Part shown: in pieces, positions 3,311 to 55,648 of the stretch | How the letters are laid out: each line of letters starts with the position of its first letter | Position numbering within the stretch: the first letter of the stretch is position 1 | Assembly: GCA_031426955.1 (NCBI GenBank) | Contig: JASJPA010000001.1 | Span: 18,152-82,151 of the forward strand | DNA length: 64,000 nucleotides | DNA from: Sulfuricella sp. | GTDB lineage: Bacteria > Pseudomonadota > Gammaproteobacteria > Burkholderiales > Sulfuricellaceae | Direction of reading: 5' to 3' | Made by a program: the position numbers and the translations under genes | Notes under the pieces: model-generated | Database searches by the model: none | What the model was told of the DNA's origin: nothing | What the model saw: the letters and a program-made list of their open reading frames with translations, nothing else

Positions 3311-4687
3311 ATGTTAAGCCTGAGTGCAGCAGCCAAGGCCCTGAACGCTGAAACCAGCGGTGCGGACGTGACGTTCTCCGGCGTCACCACCGACAGCCGT
3401 GCGGTGGCGGCCGGCGATTTGTTCGTGGCGCTGAAGGGCGAACGTTTCGATGGGCACAATTACGTCAAGCAGGTGATGGAACAGGGCGCAGCCGCAGCAC
3501 TGGTGGAGCGGCGCGACCCGGCCTGGGGCGATTTCCCGCTGCTGGTTGTCAAGGATGCGCGCCTTGCTCTGGGTGAACTGGCCGGTTACTGGCGCAGCCG
3601 CTTCACCATTCCCGTGGTGGCGCTCACCGGCAGCAGCGGCAAGACCACGGTGAAGGAAATGATCGCAGCGATCCTGCGGGCTCAGACCGGCGTGGCCGAT
3701 CAGGTGCTCGCGACCAAGGGCAACCTCAACAACGACATCGGCATGCCGCTGACGCTGCTCGGATTGCGCGACACCCATCGCTACGCCGTGATCGAGATGG
3801 GCATGAACCATCCGGGCGAGATCGCGTATCTGTCCAGGATCGCCAGGCCCGATGTGGCGCTGATCATCAATGCCCAGGCCGCCCATCTGGCGGGTTTGGG
3901 CACGGTGGAGGCGGTGGCTCGTGCCAAGGGCGAGATTTTCCAGGGCCTGGCCGCCAACGGTACCGCCGTGATCAACGCCGACGACCCTCATGCGGCACTG
4001 TGGCAGGAACTGGCGGGGGCTCATCCCATCATCCGCTTCGGCCTCGAGCAGCAGGCAGAAGTGTCGGCCAGCTTCAAATTGCAGCCCTTCGGCAGTGCAA
4101 TCGAGGTGGTCACTCCCGCCGGTAAATTTGCTGTCGCCTTGCCGGTACCGGGCGAGCACAACGTGCGCAACGCCCTGGCGGCCACTGCCGTGGCTCAGGC
4201 TCTGGGTGTCGACAACGCAACCGTCGCCGCGGGGCTGGCAAAGGTTTCCAGCGTCAAGGGCCGGCTGCTGAAAAATCCCTGCCTGCACGGCGCCACCATG
4301 ATCGACGATACCTACAACGCCAACCCCGGCTCGGTACGGGCGGCGATCGCCGTGCTCGCCGGCATGCCGGGCAAGAAGGTGCTGGTGCTCGGCGACATGG
4401 GCGAACTGGGCGAAAACGCACGCGCGCTGCATGCCGAAATCGGCGCGGCGGCGAAGGCGGCCGGGATCGACCTGCTGTTCACCCTGGGCGATCTGAGCGC
4501 CGCTGCTGCGCAGGCTTTCGGCGAGGGCGGACGGCATTTCGAATATATCGAGGACCTGCTGCACGATATCGAAAACCTGCTGGCGCCGGATGTGACGGTA
4601 CTGGTGAAGGGGTCGCGTTTCATGCAGATGGAGCGGGTAGTGAAAAGTTTCGAGCTGAAGGGGGATTCGACATGCTGCTCGCACTGA
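3311..4687 (+). CDS. murF: UDP-MurNAc-pentapeptide synthetase
   Basis: [23 protein letters not shown] and GDMGELG motifs. Confidence 0.97.
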
Positions 4688-44846: not shown

Positions 44847-44898
44847 TATATAATTTAGCACTTTTTTGCAACGAAATCCTTTGCTGGAACAGAATGTT

Positions 44899-46785
<1,887 letters not shown>

Positions 46786-46814: not shown

Positions 46815-46891
46815 GGGCCTGTAGCTCAGTTGGTTAGAGCAGAGGACTCATAATCCTTTGGTCCACGGTTCAAGTCCGTGCGGGCCCACCA
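46815..46891 (+). tRNA. tRNA-Ile2 (CAT anticodon, lysidine type); automated tools may call it Met
   Basis: 77 nt cloverleaf; GGGCCTG/CGGGCCC acceptor stem, CT-CAT-AA loop, GGTTCAAGTCC T-arm, encoded CCA; position after rpoD. Confidence 0.92.
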
Positions 46892-46895
46892 AAAT

Positions 46896-46933
46896 AACGG
46901 CTTAGAGCTAACGCTCTAGGCCGTTTTTCTTTT
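46896..46933 (+). terminator. Intrinsic terminator after the tRNA
   Basis: 13-bp stem aacggcttagagc/gctctaggccgtt followed by a T-run. Confidence 0.8.
46907..46927 (+). repeat. 21-bp direct repeat, copy 1
   Basis: GCTAACGCTCTAGGCCGTTTT, identical to 48686-48706. Confidence 0.9.
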
Positions 46934-47172: not shown

Positions 47173-47601
47173 TCAGTCCGTCTTGTCGGTCGGTTTTGGC
47201 CGCAGGATGGAAAGCCCGAGCATGAGTTGTCCATAGGGTTGGCGACCGGTAATCCAAGCCACAGCCTCGCGGATGGCGCCGTAGAGCACGCTATGGGCTG
47301 TAATCATTACACCGTGGGCAGCTTCCTCTGGTGACAGGGATTTATCGACAATAAACATGCCGACGCACTCCATATCAATCATGTATGGGGTATTCTTGTC
47401 GCCGCCCGAGTTTAATACTGACTGCATGGTCGCTATGTAGCGCCTTGGCTCCTCTTCTTCCTCGACGGCGGCCACATCAATCTTATTTTCCGGTGCAATT
47501 GAGAGTGTGCCATCGTCAGGCTTGTGATCGGGGATAGCGACTACGATGGATCGGGTAAAGAACACCCTGTCCAGAACGATGGGGTGGATTGGATGTTCCA
47601 T
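47173..47601 (-). CDS. SecB-like chaperone (TAC chaperone candidate)
   Basis: SecB-like PIVLDRVFF strand, YMIDMECVGMF, LYGAIREAVAWITGRQPYGQLML; SD GAGGA, 9 nt after the antitoxin. Confidence 0.75.
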   Translation of the reverse strand: MEHPIHPIVLDRVFFTRSIVVAIPDHKPDDGTLSIAPENKIDVAAVEEEEEPRRYIATMQSVLNSGGDKNTPYMIDMECVGMFIVDKSLSPEEAAHGVMITAHSVLYGAIREAVAWITGRQPYGQLMLGLSILRPKPTDKTD

Positions 47602-47610
47602 AATTCCTCG

Positions 47611-48024
47611 TCAGGCTGCGATCTTGTTGTCTTTGTCCTGAGCATAATTACTCAAAGACACGACTGGCGCGGTTCGGATGTATGGTTGATTGGCCGCTTC
47701 ATGTGTGTGCGCTGCCATGGCGGCGTTAATCCAGCGCTTGGCGTCAGCCTGCTCGTCAACGATCTGAATGTTGACCCGGCCGCCTGTGGATCGCGCCAGC
47801 TTTACCATGGATTCGATGGTCAAGTTGGCATCACCGCGGAACACCTTGGTGATGTATGCTGCGCTGGTGCCAATCTTTTTTGCAATGGCGGCATAGGTCA
47901 TGCCGGCGCCCCGGCGCTGGTTTTCCAGCGCCATGGAAAAGTCGAGCTTGGCCCGTTCAATCCAGTAGGTATCGTTACCCTTCGCCAGTTCGGCAAATTT
48001 CTGCAATGCCTTGCTAAGTCCCAT
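47611..48024 (-). CDS. HigA-like XRE HTH antitoxin with a ~45-aa C-terminal extension
   Basis: GMTYAAIAKKIGTSAAYITKVFRGDANLTIESMVKLA HTH; overlaps the toxin stop by 11 nt. Confidence 0.85.
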   Translation of the reverse strand: MGLSKALQKFAELAKGNDTYWIERAKLDFSMALENQRRGAGMTYAAIAKKIGTSAAYITKVFRGDANLTIESMVKLARSTGGRVNIQIVDEQADAKRWINAAMAAHTHEAANQPYIRTAPVVSLSNYAQDKDNKIAA

Positions 48025-48427
48025 CTTCGTTCACCGTAGTCAATGTGTCGTTTTTCAACGCTTCGTAATAATCGTCACGCCACTTGGCGGCTTTCTTAAT
48101 CGCAGCCGGGTCAGCCTTGTTGCCTGATTTTATGATCCCGGTCGTACACACCGCAATCTGCCCATTCTTGCCCTTGAAGAAGAACAGCCGCAACGGACCC
48201 TTGATGAATTCGTAAATCTTGAGATTCTTGTTCGCTTCATGAACCCAGGCATGCGGTACATTCTGCAACCCATTCTCCGCAATCGTGCCCAACATGTGCA
48301 TCAAGCCGTATCGCACGGCCTCGGTGGATTCCTCGCCATGCAGCAAAAAACTTTCCGCCGGACATTCGTCCCCGTCCATAACGGCGACAATCTCAAAACG
48401 GTGGGCCACCAGTCGTTTCAGCTTCAA
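48014..48427 (-). CDS. HigB/RelE (Gp49-like) toxin
   Basis: RelE-type pattern IYEFIKGPLRLFFF...VCTTGIIKSGNKADPAAIKKA; toxin-first order. Confidence 0.75.
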   Translation of the reverse strand: MKLKRLVAHRFEIVAVMDGDECPAESFLLHGEESTEAVRYGLMHMLGTIAENGLQNVPHAWVHEANKNLKIYEFIKGPLRLFFFKGKNGQIAVCTTGIIKSGNKADPAAIKKAAKWRDDYYEALKNDTLTTVNEDGT

Positions 48428-48455
48428 AGTTTAACCTATAGGTTAATTATGTCAA
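48428..48455 (-). promoter_or_regulatory. Promoter and operator of the TAC operon
   Basis: Minus strand TTGACA(48455-48450)-N16-TAAACT(48433-48428); perfect palindrome TTAACCTATAGGTTAA at 48431-48446. Confidence 0.75.
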
Positions 48456-48685
48456 GGTAGATTGCTGGTGCTAGGCGTTTCTTGTCCGGCACATCCGCCG
48501 CTCTTTCCGGCCGGCAGTTATCGTTTGCCACGCCATATAATACAGCGCATCAGCCGAACCTTGTGCTGCTGGTTTGAATAATCCGGGACGGTAACCGTGT
48601 CACCAAAGAGCAGTTGACCTGTTGCCACTCACCCGCGCCTGCGGACGATAGGGCGAAGCATGAAGCGCGGACGTTGGCTGAAAGC

Positions 48686-48706
48686 GCTAACGCTCTAGGC
48701 CGTTTT
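48686..48706 (+). repeat. 21-bp direct repeat, copy 2
   Basis: Identical to 46907-46927; 30 bp from the integrase stop. Confidence 0.9.
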
Positions 48707-48736: not shown

Positions 48737-48964
48737 TCATTTCAGCGGCTTAACCTTCTCGCCCATTTTGTTCCTGGTGTAGTGCTCAGTCATGCCGCGA
48801 TTTTTGTGCCCCAAAAGCTTCTGTGCATGTGCAAGGTCGTCTGTGTCGGTGGCGGCTTTTGCACGGATATCGCGGAATTGAAAATTGACCTTGGCGAGTT
48901 CCCGCGCCTTGTCAAAACGAGAGCGCAAAGCGCAATAGGTGAGACGGTGCCCCTTGGTCTTCAT
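48737..48964 (-). pseudogene. C-terminal fragment of a phage-type tyrosine integrase
   Basis: FQFRDIRAKAATD and AQKLLGH...MTEHY catalytic motifs; in-frame TAG six codons upstream, N-terminal part missing. Confidence 0.88.
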
Positions 48965-49032
48965 TGAGGACTCTTGATTCTAGCCGAGTCGGCCTGATTC
49001 TCCCAGTAACATACTCGGGATTGAATCGCTCC

Positions 49033-50589: not shown

Positions 50590-51483
50590 ATGGCAAATGA
50601 AGCGATGTGGCAGGCGATCGGCAAGGCAATCCGGGTTGCAACGGGGGAAGATTTTGCCGTCCGGAAATGCCGCGCCATCGGCGGCGGATGCATCAATTCG
50701 ACGTATTCGGTCGAGGACGGTGCGCTCCGCTTCTTCGTCAAGGTTAACCGCGTGTCTGGTCTGGCCATGTTTGAAGCGGAGGCCGACGGGTTGCGTGAAA
50801 TCGCGGGAGCCGGCGTTATCCGCGTTCCCCATCCGGTGTGTGCCGGAGTCGCCGAAGATTCGGCATTTCTGGTGCTTGAGGTTATTGATTTCAGTTCCGG
50901 CAGGAGGGGGCGGGCAGAAGATCTGGGGCGCCGGCTGGCCGACATGCACCGGGCAAGTGCGACACAGTACGGCTGGCGGCGCGACAACACGATCGGCTCC
51001 ACCCCCCAGGTCAACACGCCTGCCGACAACTGGCCGGAGTTCTGGCGTGACCGGAGGATCGGGCGCCAGCTGGCGCTGGCGGCAAGCATCGGTTACGGCG
51101 GTGCACTGCAACGCAAGGGGGAGCGTTTGCTGGCGAGGCTGGACGGGTTTTTTGCCGGCTATGCACCGTTGCCCTCCTTGTTGCACGGCGATCTGTGGGG
51201 CGGAAATTATGCTTACGCCGCTACCGGTGAGCCGGTTATTTTCGATCCGGCGGTCTACTATGGCGACAGGGAAACTGATCTGGCGATGACAGAATTATTC
51301 GGAGGGTTCCCCGAGGCATTCCATGCGGCCTACCGCGAGGCGTTCCCTCTCGATTCCGGCTACCCCATGCGAAAGGCGTTATACAATCTGTACCACATAC
51401 TCAATCACCTGAATATGTTTGGCGAAGGCTATCTTGGGCAAGCAGAAGGGATGATCGAAAAGCTGTTGAGCGAGGCAGAATAG
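50590..51483 (+). CDS. Fructosamine/ketosamine-3-kinase family protein
   Basis: MFEAEADGL, DNTIGSTPQ, LLHGDLWGGN, FDPAVYYGDRETDLAM. Confidence 0.92.
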   Translation: MANEAMWQAIGKAIRVATGEDFAVRKCRAIGGGCINSTYSVEDGALRFFVKVNRVSGLAMFEAEADGLREIAGAGVIRVPHPVCAGVAEDSAFLVLEVIDFSSGRRGRAEDLGRRLADMHRASATQYGWRRDNTIGSTPQVNTPADNWPEFWRDRRIGRQLALAASIGYGGALQRKGERLLARLDGFFAGYAPLPSLLHGDLWGGNYAYAATGEPVIFDPAVYYGDRETDLAMTELFGGFPEAFHAAYREAFPLDSGYPMRKALYNLYHILNHLNMFGEGYLGQAEGMIEKLLSEAE

Positions 51484-51543
51484 CTTTGCGCCAAAAATGA
51501 TTGCCTTTGGTTTGATCGGCAATTGGTAATATGCTAATTTACC

Positions 51544-51559
51544 TAGTACATTTGTACTA
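51544..51559. promoter_or_regulatory. Candidate regulator operator upstream of the sox genes
   Basis: Perfect TAGTACA-tt-TGTACTA inverted repeat in an AT-rich intergenic region. Confidence 0.5.
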
Positions 51560-51706
51560 ACTATCGGAAATAAAACAAAAAATTTCAAAAAAAGCTTGCT
51601 TTGACCAAGGTAAATTCAGTATGCTTGTTTTACACAAACAGCAAATTTTTCCAGGGTAAAGTGGATGCCTTCGGAGAATGCTCGACAAAACGGAGAAGGA
51701 GGAGTG

Positions 51707-52066
51707 ATGCGGAAAATATCGACACTTTTGTTTGCGCTGATCGCCGGCTTGGGTATCGCGAACCTGTCCATGGCAGCCGAAGTTGCCAAGGAGCCCGCTG
51801 GACGGACGGTCTTGTTCAACAAGGCGAAGGGCAATTGCCTCGCCTGCCATGCGATCCCCAATGATCCGAAGGCCTTGTCGCCTGGTAACATAGCGCCACC
51901 CTTCGTCATGATGAAGGAGCGCTTTCCCGACCGGAACAAGCTGCGTGCCCAGGTTTGGGATTCCACGGTAGCCAATCCAAAAACTTCGATGCCGCCTTTC
52001 GGAAAGCACCAGATTCTGACTGAGCAGGAAATTGATCAGGTCGTTGAATATATACTTAGCCTTTAA
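51707..52066 (+). CDS. soxX: Sulfur-oxidation c-type cytochrome SoxX
   Basis: Signal peptide, KGNCLACH heme motif, GNIAPP, SMPPFG. Confidence 0.95.
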   Translation: MRKISTLLFALIAGLGIANLSMAAEVAKEPAGRTVLFNKAKGNCLACHAIPNDPKALSPGNIAPPFVMMKERFPDRNKLRAQVWDSTVANPKTSMPPFGKHQILTEQEIDQVVEYILSL

Positions 52067-52089
52067 CTTTTTTATTCGGAGATCGAAAG

Positions 52090-52560
52090 ATGAATCACTT
52101 GCGTAGAACTTTTTTGAAGAGTACCGGTGCTGCCGGGACGGTGGCGGTCGCCATCGCCGCGGGCCTGCTCAGGCCTGGTCAGGTATTGGCAGCGGAATGG
52201 AACAAGGTGGCATTTGATGCCACGACCACGGCGGATGCGATGAAGGGTTTGAATGTTACTGGCGCCACCGAGAGCAAGGATATCCTGATCAAGGCGCCGG
52301 ATATTGCCGAGAATGGCGCGGTGGTTCCGGTGGAAGTGACCAGCAAGATTCCAGGCACCACTTCCATCATGATCTTTGTAGACAAGAACCAGAATCCCTT
52401 GATCGCTGATTTCGAGTTTTCCAATGGTGCTGAAGGATACGTTTCCACGCGCATCAAGATGGCCAACACTTCCCACGTCAGGGTGGCAGTGAAAGCCGGC
52501 GGCAAGGCATACACCGCCACCAAGGAAGTCAAGGTGACGATCGGCGGCTGCGGCGGCTGA
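52090..52560 (+). CDS. soxY: Sulfur carrier SoxY
   Basis: Tat RRTFLK; IAENGAVVP; C-terminal VTIGGCGG. Confidence 0.98.
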   Translation: MNHLRRTFLKSTGAAGTVAVAIAAGLLRPGQVLAAEWNKVAFDATTTADAMKGLNVTGATESKDILIKAPDIAENGAVVPVEVTSKIPGTTSIMIFVDKNQNPLIADFEFSNGAEGYVSTRIKMANTSHVRVAVKAGGKAYTATKEVKVTIGGCGG

Positions 52561-52610
52561 TCGGCATTGAATGGATTTGAATATTCACTTTATTTGACAA
52601 GGATACGAAC

Positions 52611-52925
52611 ATGGCTGAAGGAATGAAAATTCGCGCGACGCTGCAAGGCGATGTCGCCGATGTGAAAGCGCTGATGAATCACATCATGGAGACCGGCTTG
52701 CGCAAGGACGCCAAAACCGGGCAATTGATTCCTGCCCACTTCATCAATCACGTCGTTGCTACCCTGAACGGCAAGACCGTGCTGGAAGCGCAGTGGGGTG
52801 CGGCAATTGCCAAGAATCCCTTTCTGGGCTTCAAGATCAAGGGCGCCAAGGCCGGCGACAAAATCGTGATTAATGCGGTGGACAACAAAGGCGAAAAAAT
52901 GAGCGGCGAAGCGAGTATTGCCTGA
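52611..52925 (+). CDS. soxZ: Sulfur carrier SoxZ
   Basis: HIMETGLRKD...IPAHFI, KNPF. Confidence 0.97.
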   Translation: MAEGMKIRATLQGDVADVKALMNHIMETGLRKDAKTGQLIPAHFINHVVATLNGKTVLEAQWGAAIAKNPFLGFKIKGAKAGDKIVINAVDNKGEKMSGEASIA

Positions 52926-52932
52926 TCAAGCC

Positions 52933-52957
52933 TGGCCGGATGCTTCTTGTCCGGCCA
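52933..52957. other. Intergenic hairpin between soxZ and soxA
   Basis: tggccgga/tccggcca 8-bp stem. Confidence 0.4.
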
Positions 52958-52995
52958 ATTTCACACAAAAAATTATAACGATTTCTGCGAAAGGA

Positions 52996-53829
52996 ATGAT
53001 GATGAGACGGAGACTCACCGCTTTTCTGGCCTGTCTGTTTCTGGGTGCCAGCCTTGCTGCGAGCGCCGGGCCTGCCGAGGATCGCAAGGCCTTGACCGAG
53101 CATTACAAGCAGCGTCTTCCTGGCGTAAAGTTTGAGGATTATGTGCTGGGCGCCCTGGCGTTGAATAAAGACGCCCTGGATCAGTATGAAAGCATCATGA
53201 TTTTCCCGCCTTTCGTCAACGATGTCGATGATGGCAGGAAAATATGGGAAAAGCCGTTCAAGAACGGTAAGAAGTTCTCTTCGTGCTTTCCCGATGGCGG
53301 CAAGAATGTGGCTGGCCGCTATCCCTATTTCGACAATGCCAGCGGCAAGGTCATCACTTTCGAGAACGCGCTCAATGCCTGCCTGAAGGCGAACGGCGAG
53401 GCGGAGTTGAAATATGGCAGCAATGATCTCGGGTTGTTGTCGGCATATGTAAAGAGTTTGTCGGACGGGATGAAAGTGCAGGTCAAGGTGGAGGGCCCTG
53501 CTGCCCTGGCTGCGTATGAAAAAGGCAAGACACATTACTATAGCCGCCGCGGCCAGCTGAATTTCTCTTGCGCATCTTGCCATATCGACAATGTCGGTAT
53601 GTTCGTCCGTAGCGAACAGCTCTCCCCGATGATCGGGCAGGCGGCACACTGGCCGGAATTTCGCGCCGGAACGGAACTGGTTACGCTGCAAGGGCGTTTT
53701 CGGCAATGCCAAAAGAATGTGCGTGCAACTCCGCTGGAATTCAACAGTGAAGAGTACAACAATCTGGAATACTTCCTCACCTACATGAGCAACGGCCTGC
53801 CGATGCAGACGCCGGTGTTCCGCAAGTAA
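52996..53829 (+). CDS. soxA: SoxA cytochrome c, monoheme form
   Basis: One CASCH; first site reduced to FSSCF; RRGQLNF and RFRQC motifs. Confidence 0.95.
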   Translation: MMMRRRLTAFLACLFLGASLAASAGPAEDRKALTEHYKQRLPGVKFEDYVLGALALNKDALDQYESIMIFPPFVNDVDDGRKIWEKPFKNGKKFSSCFPDGGKNVAGRYPYFDNASGKVITFENALNACLKANGEAELKYGSNDLGLLSAYVKSLSDGMKVQVKVEGPAALAAYEKGKTHYYSRRGQLNFSCASCHIDNVGMFVRSEQLSPMIGQAAHWPEFRAGTELVTLQGRFRQCQKNVRATPLEFNSEEYNNLEYFLTYMSNGLPMQTPVFRK

Positions 53830-53842
53830 GCCACTCGGGCCA

Positions 53843-53912
53843 GGGGTATGGGGCTAGAGGCTGGAGGCGGTTGTCGCTTCGCGTTTTCCTCCTGCCCCTC
53901 GCCTCGTGCCTC
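53843..53912. repeat. Degenerate heptamer-built inverted repeat between soxA and soxB
   Basis: Arms 53843-53867 and 53888-53912 pair with 4 G-U and 3 mismatches. Confidence 0.6.
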
Positions 53913-53932
53913 TTTCCTGATTTGGAGTTCCC

Positions 53933-55648
53933 ATGTCCATGAACCGCCGCGAATTTCTGCAGATGCTGGCAGTGGCCGCCGCATCCGGCTTCGCGCTGAA
54001 CAGCCGGCAGGCCCTGTCTGCCAGCCACGCAGGAAGCTTCTACGATTTGCCCGCATACGGCAATGTCTCATTGCTGCACATCACCGATTGCCATGCTCAG
54101 TTGATGCCGATTTATTTCCGTGAACCCAACGTGAATATCGGCCTGGGCGCCAGCCTCAACAAGCCGCCGCACCTGGTGGGAGAGAAGCTGCTCAAGGCAT
54201 TCGGCATCCGTCCCGGCACGGTCGAAGCGCATGCTTTCACTTCCCTCGATTTCGAAAAGGCCGCCCGCACCTACGGCAAGGTCGGCGGCTTTGCCCACCT
54301 CGCCGGACTGGTGAAGAAGGTTCGCGCCAACCGTCCGGGGGCCTTGCTGCTGGATGGCGGCGATACCTGGCAGGGTTCCGCCACCGCGCTGTGGACCAAT
54401 GGCCAGGACATGGTGGATGCCTGCAAACTGCTTGGTGTGGACATCATGACCGGACACTGGGAATTCACTCTGGGCGCAGAGCGCGTCAAGCAGATCGTGG
54501 ACAACGATTTCAAGGGCAAGGTGGATTTTCTGGCGCAGAACATCAAGACCAACGATTTCGGCGACCAGGTGTTCCAGCCTTATGTCATCAAGCGCATGAA
54601 CGGCATCCCGGTTGCGATCATCGGCCAGGCCTTCCCCTACACGCCGATCGCCAACCCGCGTTACATGACCCCGGACTGGAGCTTCGGCATCCAGGACGAC
54701 AATATGCAGAAGATGGTAGATGAGGCTCGCGCCAAGGGCGCCCAGGTCGTGGTGGTGCTGTCCCACAACGGCATGGACGTGGACCTCAAAATGGCCAGCC
54801 GCGTCACCGGTATCGATGCCATCCTCGGCGGCCATACCCACGACGGCATGCCTGCTCCGTCCATCGTCAAGAATGCCAAGGGACAAACCCTGGTGACCAA
54901 CGCCGGTTCCAATGGCAAGTTTCTTGGCGTGCTGGATTTCGACGTCAGGAACGGCAAGGTGGCCGGCTTCAAATACAAGCTGCTGCCGGTGTTCGCTAAC
55001 CTGATTAAGCCGGATGCAAACATGGCAGCCCTGATCAAGAAGGTTCGCGCGCCCTACGAAGCCAAGCTGGCGGAAAAGCTGGCCGTCACCGAGGGGACGC
55101 TGTACCGCCGCGGCAACTTCAACGGCACCTTCGATCAATTGATTCTGGATGCCCTGATGGAAGTGAAAGGAGCGGACGCGGCCTTCTCTCCCGGCTTCCG
55201 CTGGGGCACTTCGCTGTTGCCGGGCGACACCATCACCATGGAAAATCTGATGGACCAGACCGCCATCACCTATCCCTATACCACGCTGACCGAAATGACC
55301 GGTGAAACGATCAAGTCCGTTATGGAAGACGTCTGTGACAACCTGTTCAATGCCGATCCCTACAAGCAGCAGGGCGGCGACATGGTGCGCGTCGGCGGCA
55401 TCAGCTATACCTGCGATTTGCGCCAGGGCTTCGGCAAGCGCATCAACAACATGGTTCTGAAGGGCAAGCCGCTCGATCCCAACAAGAAATACAAGGTGGC
55501 GGGCTGGGCACCGGTGGCGGAGGGCGCCAGCGGCGAGCCGGTCTGGGATGTGGTGGCGAGCTACTTGCGCGACAAGAAGGTGATCACGCCGCGCAAGCTC
55601 AATCTGCCCAGGCTGATCGGGGTGGAGGGCAATGCCGGCATCGCTTGA
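53933..55648 (+). CDS. soxB: Thiosulfohydrolase SoxB
   Basis: Tat RREFL; TDCHAQ, DGGDTWQGS, GHWEF and GGHTHD metallophosphoesterase motifs. Confidence 0.98.
   Translation: MSMNRREFLQMLAVAAASGFALNSRQALSASHAGSFYDLPAYGNVSLLHITDCHAQLMPIYFREPNVNIGLGASLNKPPHLVGEKLLKAFGIRPGTVEAHAFTSLDFEKAARTYGKVGGFAHLAGLVKKVRANRPGALLLDGGDTWQGSATALWTNGQDMVDACKLLGVDIMTGHWEFTLGAERVKQIVDNDFKGKVDFLAQNIKTNDFGDQVFQPYVIKRMNGIPVAIIGQAFPYTPIANPRYMTPDWSFGIQDDNMQKMVDEARAKGAQVVVVLSHNGMDVDLKMASRVTGIDAILGGHTHDGMPAPSIVKNAKGQTLVTNAGSNGKFLGVLDFDVRNGKVAGFKYKLLPVFANLIKPDANMAALIKKVRAPYEAKLAEKLAVTEGTLYRRGNFNGTFDQLILDALMEVKGADAAFSPGFRWGTSLLPGDTITMENLMDQTAITYPYTTLTEMTGETIKSVMEDVCDNLFNADPYKQQGGDMVRVGGISYTCDLRQGFGKRINNMVLKGKPLDPNKKYKVAGWAPVAEGASGEPVWDVVASYLRDKKVITPRKLNLPRLIGVEGNAGIA

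Follow-up and report, generated by a model that had tools for sequence, protein, structure and literature searches.

We present a computational analysis of a three-gene operon in a 64,000-nucleotide stretch of Sulfuricella sp. DNA (GenBank assembly GCA_031426955.1, contig JASJPA010000001.1; "the window" denotes this whole stretch), which encodes proteins resembling a HigB-type toxin, a HigA-like antitoxin and a SecB-like chaperone. The locus is probably an intact HigBA-type toxin-antitoxin-chaperone (TAC) operon on a small, horizontally acquired cassette beside a tRNA gene, and it is an uncharacterised addition to the known HigBA-type TAC class and not a new kind of system. To our knowledge, TACs are one of the few defence types whose sensing step is understood, namely the titration of the chaperone by a phage structural protein, and only a handful have been tested, all of them from E. 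coli, Mycobacterium, Vibrio, Methylomonas or Geobacter.

The three genes and their inheritance as a unit

The original prediction had described three tightly coupled minus-strand genes, the first two overlapping by 11 nt and the last two lying 9 nt apart, and the open reading frame (ORF) listing agrees with it in every coordinate. The genes, and the antitoxin tail as delimited on the alignment, are as follows.

48014-48427, minus strand: toxin gene, 137 aa, TTG start
47611-48024, minus strand: antitoxin gene, 137 aa, ATG start
47614-47748, minus strand: candidate chaperone-addiction (ChAD) tail, antitoxin residues 93-137
47173-47601, minus strand: chaperone gene, 142 aa, ATG start

The toxin and antitoxin frames share positions 48014-48024, the antitoxin and chaperone frames are separated by positions 47602-47610, and a GAGGA ribosome-binding site stands 5' of the chaperone ATG. 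Between 200 and 300 homologues were retrieved for toxin, antitoxin and chaperone alike (298 for the antitoxin). Related loci were collected by a chaperone-seeded scan of one genome per species and by toxin-seeded scans of metagenome and viral sequences; the toxin-antitoxin-chaperone order is kept in 32 of the 35 assessable loci of the former, and the chaperone gene lies directly 3' of the antitoxin gene in 49 of the 52 assessable loci of the latter, mostly at a spacing of 0-15 nt or with an overlap. Given that each protein has 200-300 homologues and that the same order recurs in related loci, the arrangement is not a matter of chance: three co-oriented, tightly linked genes are conserved and inherited together as a unit. 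All family-invariant residues are retained in the three proteins of the window, invariance being defined on alignments with the window copies as first sequence. No second copy of the toxin, antitoxin or chaperone gene, or of the operator described below, was found within the window.

The first gene is, as judged from its structural model, a HigB/Gp49-fold toxin of the RelE/ParE superfamily. The AlphaFold2 (AF2) model has a predicted local distance difference test (pLDDT) score of 91.7, with a high-confidence N-terminal strand, and its top Foldseek match is Streptococcus pneumoniae HigB (6af4; E 9e-5, template modelling score up to 0.77), followed by M. tuberculosis HigB1 (7awk; E 7e-3), V. cholerae HigB2 and RelE. 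The fold is thus RelE-like with HigB-type toxins closest, Gp49 of Pfam is matched by 33 of 41 toxin homologues (best E 1e-6), and the gene order is the "reversed" one in which the toxin precedes an antitoxin of XRE helix-turn-helix type; the RelE/HigB-like toxin of the original prediction is well founded in this respect. Conserved residues R39, H63, E73, K76, R80, K85 and K100 lie mostly on or beside predicted helix alpha-2 and the sheet strands.

The long TTG start of the toxin can be taken as real, since a start codon is found at position 1 in 81 of 83 non-redundant loci (TTG in 43, ATG in 27 and GTG in 11), variation within codons 2-6 is greatest at third positions, and the N-terminal strand is confidently modelled. 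Initiation at a downstream ATG (M17, position 48379) was considered and rejected, because methionine is not conserved at residue 17 and the position-1 start is. A TTG start would fit a toxin output that is low relative to that of the antitoxin. As a separate observation, the toxins of loci L096-L109 and similar loci share only 31-39% identity with that of the window; in the same L096-L109 clade the antitoxin and chaperone match the family profiles at E values of about 1e-50 and 1e-69, and the toxin there has either evolved faster or been swapped between modules.

The antitoxin is the sole one of the three proteins to exceed its Pfam threshold (HTH_3, 35 bits, residues 35-81). Its residues 1-95 are conserved, with S54, Y57, K60 and F62 of the recognition-helix region invariant in the alignment, and by sequence it is a HigA-like, XRE-type helix-turn-helix protein. 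Beyond this conserved domain extends the tail of about 45 residues that had been proposed as a ChAD, which contains W98, the aromatic residues Y115 and Y127, a hydrophobic TAPVVSLSNY segment and a C-terminal Ile-Ala-Ala. The tail varies in sequence across the family, yet W98 and the terminal alanine are near-invariant.

Tail features were compared between chaperone-linked antitoxins and relatives whose loci have enough downstream sequence and carry no chaperone gene (L051, L062, L079 and L089).

Chaperone-linked antitoxins, non-redundant, n=79: Trp in first 16 tail residues, 78; Ala-Ala end, 54; Ala end, 72
Chaperone-less loci, n=4: Trp in first 16 tail residues, 0; Ala-Ala end, 0; Ala end, 1
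Background, random reading frames of the same loci: Ala-Ala end, 5%; Ala end, 16%

Two of the chaperone-less tails are 22-24 residues long and the others 40 and 64. Thus the early tryptophan and the Ala-Ala end, near-universal where the chaperone gene is present, are missing in all four loci that lack it, and in sequence the hallmark features of the tail track the presence of that gene. As the comparison group is small and its members are not phylogenetically independent, this covariation is good circumstantial evidence, short of proof, and the comparative data support the view that the tail behaves as a chaperone-addiction element. Similar tails are on record: the ChAD of M. tuberculosis HigA1 is formed by its last 45 residues and carries Trp/Tyr motifs (PMC5105189), the tail of E. 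coli HigA is recognised via spaced aromatic residues (bioRxiv 10.1101/2024.02.24.581848), and the Leu-Ala-Ala end of CmdA and the Val-Ala end of M. tuberculosis HigA1 are chaperone-shielded ClpXP degrons (bioRxiv 10.1101/2024.02.24.581848; PMC11618068).

The third protein has, by model and profile, a SecB fold, in line with the SecB-like motifs noted originally. Its AF2 model (pLDDT 82.8) shows four strands and a long helix and finds as its top match in the Protein Data Bank (PDB) the structure of the M. tuberculosis TAC chaperone Rv1957 with the HigA1 ChAD peptide (5mtw, E 4e-5), with E. coli SecB and H. influenzae SecB next. A broadened profile (A4), built by adding representatives at 50% identity, recovers E. 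coli SecB (7e-9), H. influenzae SecB (1e-8) and Rv1957 (8e-5), and its alignment with E. coli SecB is near full-length (residues 6-132) and includes the conserved LYGAIRE...R.P.G..LG segment. The SecB family of Pfam is matched by 25 of 41 chaperone homologues (best E 2.5e-8). Searches of PDB sequences with the single chaperone or toxin sequences, or with the narrow profiles A1 and A2, gave no match, and the link to known structures is made only by fold search and the broadened profile.

Identity with the housekeeping SecB was rejected on equivalog scores, genomic context and the missing C-terminal helix. The protein scores 12-18 bits against NCBIfam SecB equivalog cut-offs of 143-277, and it ends at the point where helix alpha-2 of SecB would start. 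Residues D20 and E24 of E. coli SecB contact SecA; the residues of the window chaperone that align with them are Arg17 and Val21. Outside the family, the nearest SecB-like genes in the plasmid collection sit in MqsA+SecB TAC operons. It may also be recorded that few parts of the chaperone are as conserved as its C-terminal segment GRQPYGQLMLGLSILRP (residues 118-142, positions 47173-47250), in which R120, G124, G129, L130 and S131 are invariant, yet the model places this segment with little confidence; its counterpart in E. coli SecB is the crossover segment, with which it aligns.

Operator, promoter and the repeat-flanked cassette

Upstream of the toxin gene, a palindrome and a promoter-like sequence overlap.

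48431-48446, no strand: perfect 16-bp palindrome TTAACCTATAGGTTAA, single occurrence in the window against 0.02 expected
48428-48455, minus strand: sigma-70-like promoter, TTGACA-16 nt-TAAACT, 10/12 consensus positions in a consensus scan

The palindrome lies within the promoter spacer, overlaps the core promoter and contains the AGG of the likely ribosome-binding site. A motif TTAAC[CT][CT]ATAGGTTAA stands about 19-20 nt 5' of the toxin start in almost all of some 80 related loci, being kept even where toxins share only about 30% identity with that of the window, and many relatives, but not every one, carry TTGACA 1-3 nt 5' of the palindrome. The palindrome is therefore the probable operator of the antitoxin, as far as can be judged from conservation and position, and autorepression by the antitoxin at this site would be the obvious reading. 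In loci L001-L122 this element, about 20 nt 5' of the toxin start, is more conserved than the proteins themselves. Since near-identical operators accompany toxins of only about 30% identity, family members residing in one cell could cross-repress each other.

The start of the transcript is less readily placed. TAAACT, the best candidate for a -10 element, ends one base 5' of the conserved TTG start codon, so a transcript arising from it could not encode the conserved N-terminus. Either another promoter may be in use, or transcription may begin from an extended -10 (TGaCATAAT) within the palindrome; an extended -10 with a start inside the palindrome would make the AGG of the palindrome the ribosome-binding site.

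The surroundings of the operon point to its acquisition as a compact unit, bounded as listed here.

44866-46785: rpoD, from the ORF listing
46815-46891, plus strand: tRNA with CAT anticodon, called Met by ARAGORN, downstream of rpoD
46904-46927, plus strand: att-like direct repeat, copy 1, coinciding with the 3' arm and T-run of the tRNA terminator hairpin
48683-48706, plus strand: att-like direct repeat, copy 2, between the TAC promoter region and the integrase stub
48737-48964, minus strand: tyrosine recombinase (integrase) remnant, Pfam Phage_integrase E 9.5e-7, profile positions 100-170 of 172

The two repeat copies, detected by a repeat search, are 24 nt long, identical at 23 of 24 positions and spaced 1779 nt apart; the terminator hairpin into which the first copy falls (46896-46925) has a folding energy of -22 kcal/mol (z -4.9). 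The 1.78-kb interval between them carries only the three TAC genes and is poorer in guanine plus cytosine (GC), at 51-55%, than the rpoD and selO genes on either side, at 58-63%. The integrase stub, which lies outside the repeat-bounded cassette, retains no more than 75 C-terminal residues, the catalytic-Tyr region among them. With bracketing direct repeats, a lower GC content inside, an integrase stub and a tRNA at hand, the operon is taken to be all that a horizontally acquired cassette of 1.78 kb carries. Insertion was probably by site-specific recombination, in tandem with an element that survives as its integrase end only; the order in which cassette and element would have arrived is deduced from their present arrangement.

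The designation of the insertion site as tRNA-Ile is reasonable, although ARAGORN calls the gene Met: the best full-length E. coli matches of this tRNA, at 82-83% identity, are annotated as tRNA-Ile, and by sequence it is most like a tRNA-Ile(CAU) that marks the site of insertion. A 13/16 similarity between the anticodon arm (46842-46857) and positions 48966-48981 was considered as an old att site and rejected as chance, as it extends no further.

Downstream of the operon follow selO, a fructosamine-kinase-like gene and a soxXYAB cluster, and from the last of these the host is taken to be a sulfur oxidiser. By eye, the translations of this thiosulfate-oxidation cluster (51665-55648) comprise a SoxX-like cytochrome c, SoxY-like and SoxA-like proteins and a SoxB-like 5'-nucleotidase/metallophosphatase, and a stretch of low GC content (43-47%) lies ahead of it at 51200-51800.

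Family distribution and the weighing of explanations

The homologues are hosted mostly by Betaproteobacteria, among them Sulfuricella, Gallionella, Sideroxydans, Nitrosomonadales, Rhodoferax, Polaromonas, Azonexus and Polynucleobacter, and the family comprises about 37 clusters at 50% identity (E <=1e-30) and about 300 clusters at 90% identity. Chaperone and antitoxin proteins identical to those of the window recur in independent metagenome samples (L038-L040) in the same arrangement, together with an ORF of the 137-aa toxin size, and in two of these (L039 and L040) the same integrase stub adjoins the same operon. The L041/L042 clade has RecT, YqaJ, DnaB and a cI-like repressor as neighbours in the early region of a prophage, and it is represented on a contig of the IMG/VR viral collection as well (L117). 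In L120 and L121 the operon lies about 0.6-0.8 kb 3' of cI-like repressors (helix-turn-helix plus S24 peptidase) with one ORF between, in the former with an integrase nearby and in the latter with a VapE-like primase. In L046-L048 it is placed between a type I restriction-modification (R-M)/TacAT cluster and bacteriophage exclusion (BREX) genes. Six toxin-seeded matches fall on IMG/VR viral contigs in which the chaperone gene was detected too. Other relatives are situated among ordinary chromosomal genes (L043, near nif genes, and L045). Because relatives occupy cI-adjacent, prophage and BREX/R-M slots, and because the validated E. coli HigBAC lies downstream of cI, a role in phage defence is plausible on genomic context, short of proof.

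Some members of the family warrant separate mention. Two loci look damaged: in L083 (about 1121-1897) the antitoxin and chaperone form one 258-aa frame, with a frameshift relative to L076, and in L002 (5184-5962) the toxin is split and the antitoxin tail frameshifted. The closest genomic relative, a Sulfuricella metagenome-assembled genome (L043/L044), has beside its nif genes a second, two-gene HigBA pair at 3953-4649, which consists of a PF09907 HigB toxin and an HTH_3 protein and is 3 kb from the TAC operon.

With M. tuberculosis HigBA1-SecB, E. coli HigBAC and CmdTAC as models, the working of the operon may be envisaged as follows. The toxin, weakly translated from its TTG, would be a ribosome-dependent mRNA endonuclease; the folded N-terminal part of the antitoxin would bind and neutralise it; and an antitoxin dimer would repress the operon at TTAACCTATAGGTTAA over the promoter. 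The tail would destabilise the antitoxin, since its aromatic and hydrophobic patches (W98, Y115, VVSLSNY) would favour misfolding, and the C-terminal Ile-Ala-Ala may expose the protein to ClpXP, unless a SecB-like tetramer grips the tail and keeps the antitoxin functional. Titration of the chaperone would then lead to loss of the antitoxin, release of the toxin and a shutdown of translation. In known TACs, a freshly synthesised structural protein of the phage, present in abundance and similar in its aromatic pattern, competes for the chaperone. Toxicity, chaperone dependence and operator binding of the window system are expected by analogy with these models, and phage sensing, with its trigger, is conjectural.

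Several observations weigh against this interpretation of the locus as a working TAC with a defensive role. Taken alone, the window toxin reaches 18.5 bits against Pfam Gp49 (cut-off 23.9) and the window chaperone 21.8 bits against Pfam SecB (cut-off 26), and PADLOC defence models returned no match for toxin or chaperone. A tblastn search with the chaperone against 50,697 sequenced phage genomes found no family member. The chaperone-less comparison comprises four loci only, not phylogenetically independent; the -10 abutting the toxin start codon leaves the 5' end of the transcript unexplained; and E. coli HigA is independent of ClpXP (bioRxiv 10.1101/2024.02.24.581848), so the reading of Ala-Ala as a degron is not valid for every TAC. 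In view of the sub-threshold Pfam scores, the lack of PADLOC matches and the null single-sequence PDB searches, the word "divergent", by which the module had been characterised, holds for its sequence; it does not hold for its architecture, which is textbook.

The most serious competing explanation, which we regard as possible though on balance unlikely, keeps the chaperone-dependent TAC and assigns it a role other than defence, either stabilisation of its element by post-segregational addiction or a response to proteotoxic or export stress through diversion of the chaperone. A repeat-flanked cassette of 1.78 kb that lies beside a decayed integrase and carries this operon and nothing else does fit a selfish addiction module, TACs were originally described as stress-responsive (PMC3581621), with a stress role first proposed for the M. 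tuberculosis TAC, and both the relatives among ordinary chromosomal genes and the empty search of sequenced phages agree with it. Yet defence against phages has been demonstrated for two TACs that are built alike, CmdTAC and E. coli HigBAC, relatives of the window operon are found in the cI-adjacent prophage defence slot and beside BREX and R-M genes, and addiction or stress roles are compatible with a defence role.

It is very unlikely that the locus is a decaying, non-working remnant of an old integrated element, as the neighbouring integrase cut to its last 75 residues, the want of other cargo in the cassette and the frameshifted copies among relatives (L002, L083) might suggest, for the three intact frames keep all family-invariant residues, neither the promoter nor the perfect operator palindrome is damaged, and the identical chaperone and antitoxin recur in the same arrangement in independent metagenome samples. 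Moreover, the three intact parts imply ongoing function, because selection would act against a toxin left without repression or neutralisation. There is likewise hardly any likelihood that the module is a plain two-gene HigBA whose SecB-like neighbour has another job, such as the export of another client, with the tail a disordered appendix. TAC SecB-like chaperones can indeed partly substitute for the housekeeping SecB in E. coli (PMC5105189), the window chaperone is under the Pfam SecB threshold, and binding of the tail is a prediction; against this stand the almost constant position of the chaperone gene 3' of the antitoxin gene in toxin-seeded loci, the disappearance of the tail Trp and Ala-Ala end exactly where the chaperone gene disappears, and the distance of the chaperone from housekeeping SecB in equivalog score, C-terminal extent and the residues at D20/E24. 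An intact HigBA-type TAC operon on a small acquired cassette hence remains the preferred reading, and in this the original prediction is supported.

A further, more speculative extension, to which we assign a low probability, is that the SecB-like protein serves as sensor for a structural protein of the as yet little-known phages of sulfur- and iron-oxidising Betaproteobacteria, and that the 1.78-kb unit is a minimal defence cassette moved between tRNA and cI-adjacent slots by integrases acting in trans. If so, the near-invariant operator would let co-resident or incoming copies cross-repress each other.

Overall, the family adds a compact, well-populated TAC clade from environmental Betaproteobacteria, one that PADLOC 2.0 models and Pfam thresholds at present miss. 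It offers a convenient test case in which a 45-residue tail combining a candidate Trp anchor with a candidate Ala-Ala degron, natural variants that have lost the chaperone and both of these features, and an unusually conserved operator come together, and which could be of use for studying the evolution of addiction tails and the manner in which chaperone specificity arises. Further points of note are the family-wide occurrence of the operator, the minimal size of the repeat-flanked cassette and the natural origin of the chaperone-less variants.

Likeness to characterised systems

The housekeeping SecB of E. coli and H. influenzae shares with the window chaperone its fold and, over residues 6-132, profile homology; unlike it, the window chaperone is encoded outside a secB context and is without helix alpha-2 and the acidic C-terminal tail. 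Nearer in gene arrangement are the MqsRA-SecB TACs of a Cupriavidus taiwanensis plasmid (NZ_CP016951) and of Thiodictyon plasmid pTs485, whose chaperones share 38% and 26% identity with that of the window over about half their length and whose chaperone gene is also directly 3' of the antitoxin gene; they differ in having an MqsA-type antitoxin (zinc ribbon plus helix-turn-helix) and another toxin family. Of these two plasmid loci (L050 in Thiodictyon, L049 in Cupriavidus), one MqsA-type TAC adjoins the DISARM helicase gene drmA and the other stands amid insertion sequences.

CmdTAC of E. coli ECOR22 / O112ab:H26 resembles the window system as envisaged here in that a SecB-like chaperone shields from ClpXP an antitoxin ending in Leu-Ala-Ala, the window tail ending in Ile-Ala-Ala; in CmdTAC it is a capsid protein of the phage that drives the chaperone off (PMC11618068). 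Its toxin, in contrast, is an mRNA ADP-ribosyltransferase and not a RelE/HigB-type RNase, and its antitoxin belongs to a family other than that of the window. A tie to the validated HigBA-type TAC of Geobacter lovleyi was sought and is not claimable: the published primers imply that the toxin begins with MFIKSLIP and the antitoxin ends in VYRHAQG (PMC5105189), and L003, the sole locus of the present family binned to Geobacteraceae, encodes neither.

Compared by published description and not by sequence, HigBAC of E. coli NT1F31 combines, as the window operon is proposed to do, a SecB-like sensor with a toxin of HigB type and an antitoxin of HigA type whose ChAD is read through its aromatic residues. 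It defends against phages, is triggered by the lambda major tail protein gpV and is located downstream of a cI repressor, and a slot downstream of a cI-like prophage repressor is common to it and to relatives of the window operon. Its ChAD has 96 residues with four spaced aromatic motifs and is ClpXP-independent, whereas the window tail has 45 residues and an Ala-Ala end.

The TAC of M. tuberculosis, HigB1-HigA1-SecB-TA (Rv1955-Rv1956-Rv1957), has the same toxin-antitoxin-chaperone order as the window operon and, like it, a HigB-fold toxin, an XRE helix-turn-helix antitoxin and a tail of about 45 residues with Trp/Tyr motifs, an addiction tail in M. tuberculosis and a candidate one in the window. 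Both tails end in a small aliphatic residue followed by alanine, Val-Ala in M. tuberculosis HigA1 and Ala-Ala in the window, and Rv1957 (5mtw) is the best structural match of the window chaperone. The two chaperones are only 15-18% identical in sequence and the two toxins about 16%, and the window chaperone, with 142 residues where the crystallised Rv1957 chain has 184, has no C-terminal extension. Unlike the M. tuberculosis TAC, the window operon belongs to an environmental, sulfur-oxidising betaproteobacterium and is carried on a tRNA-linked cassette.

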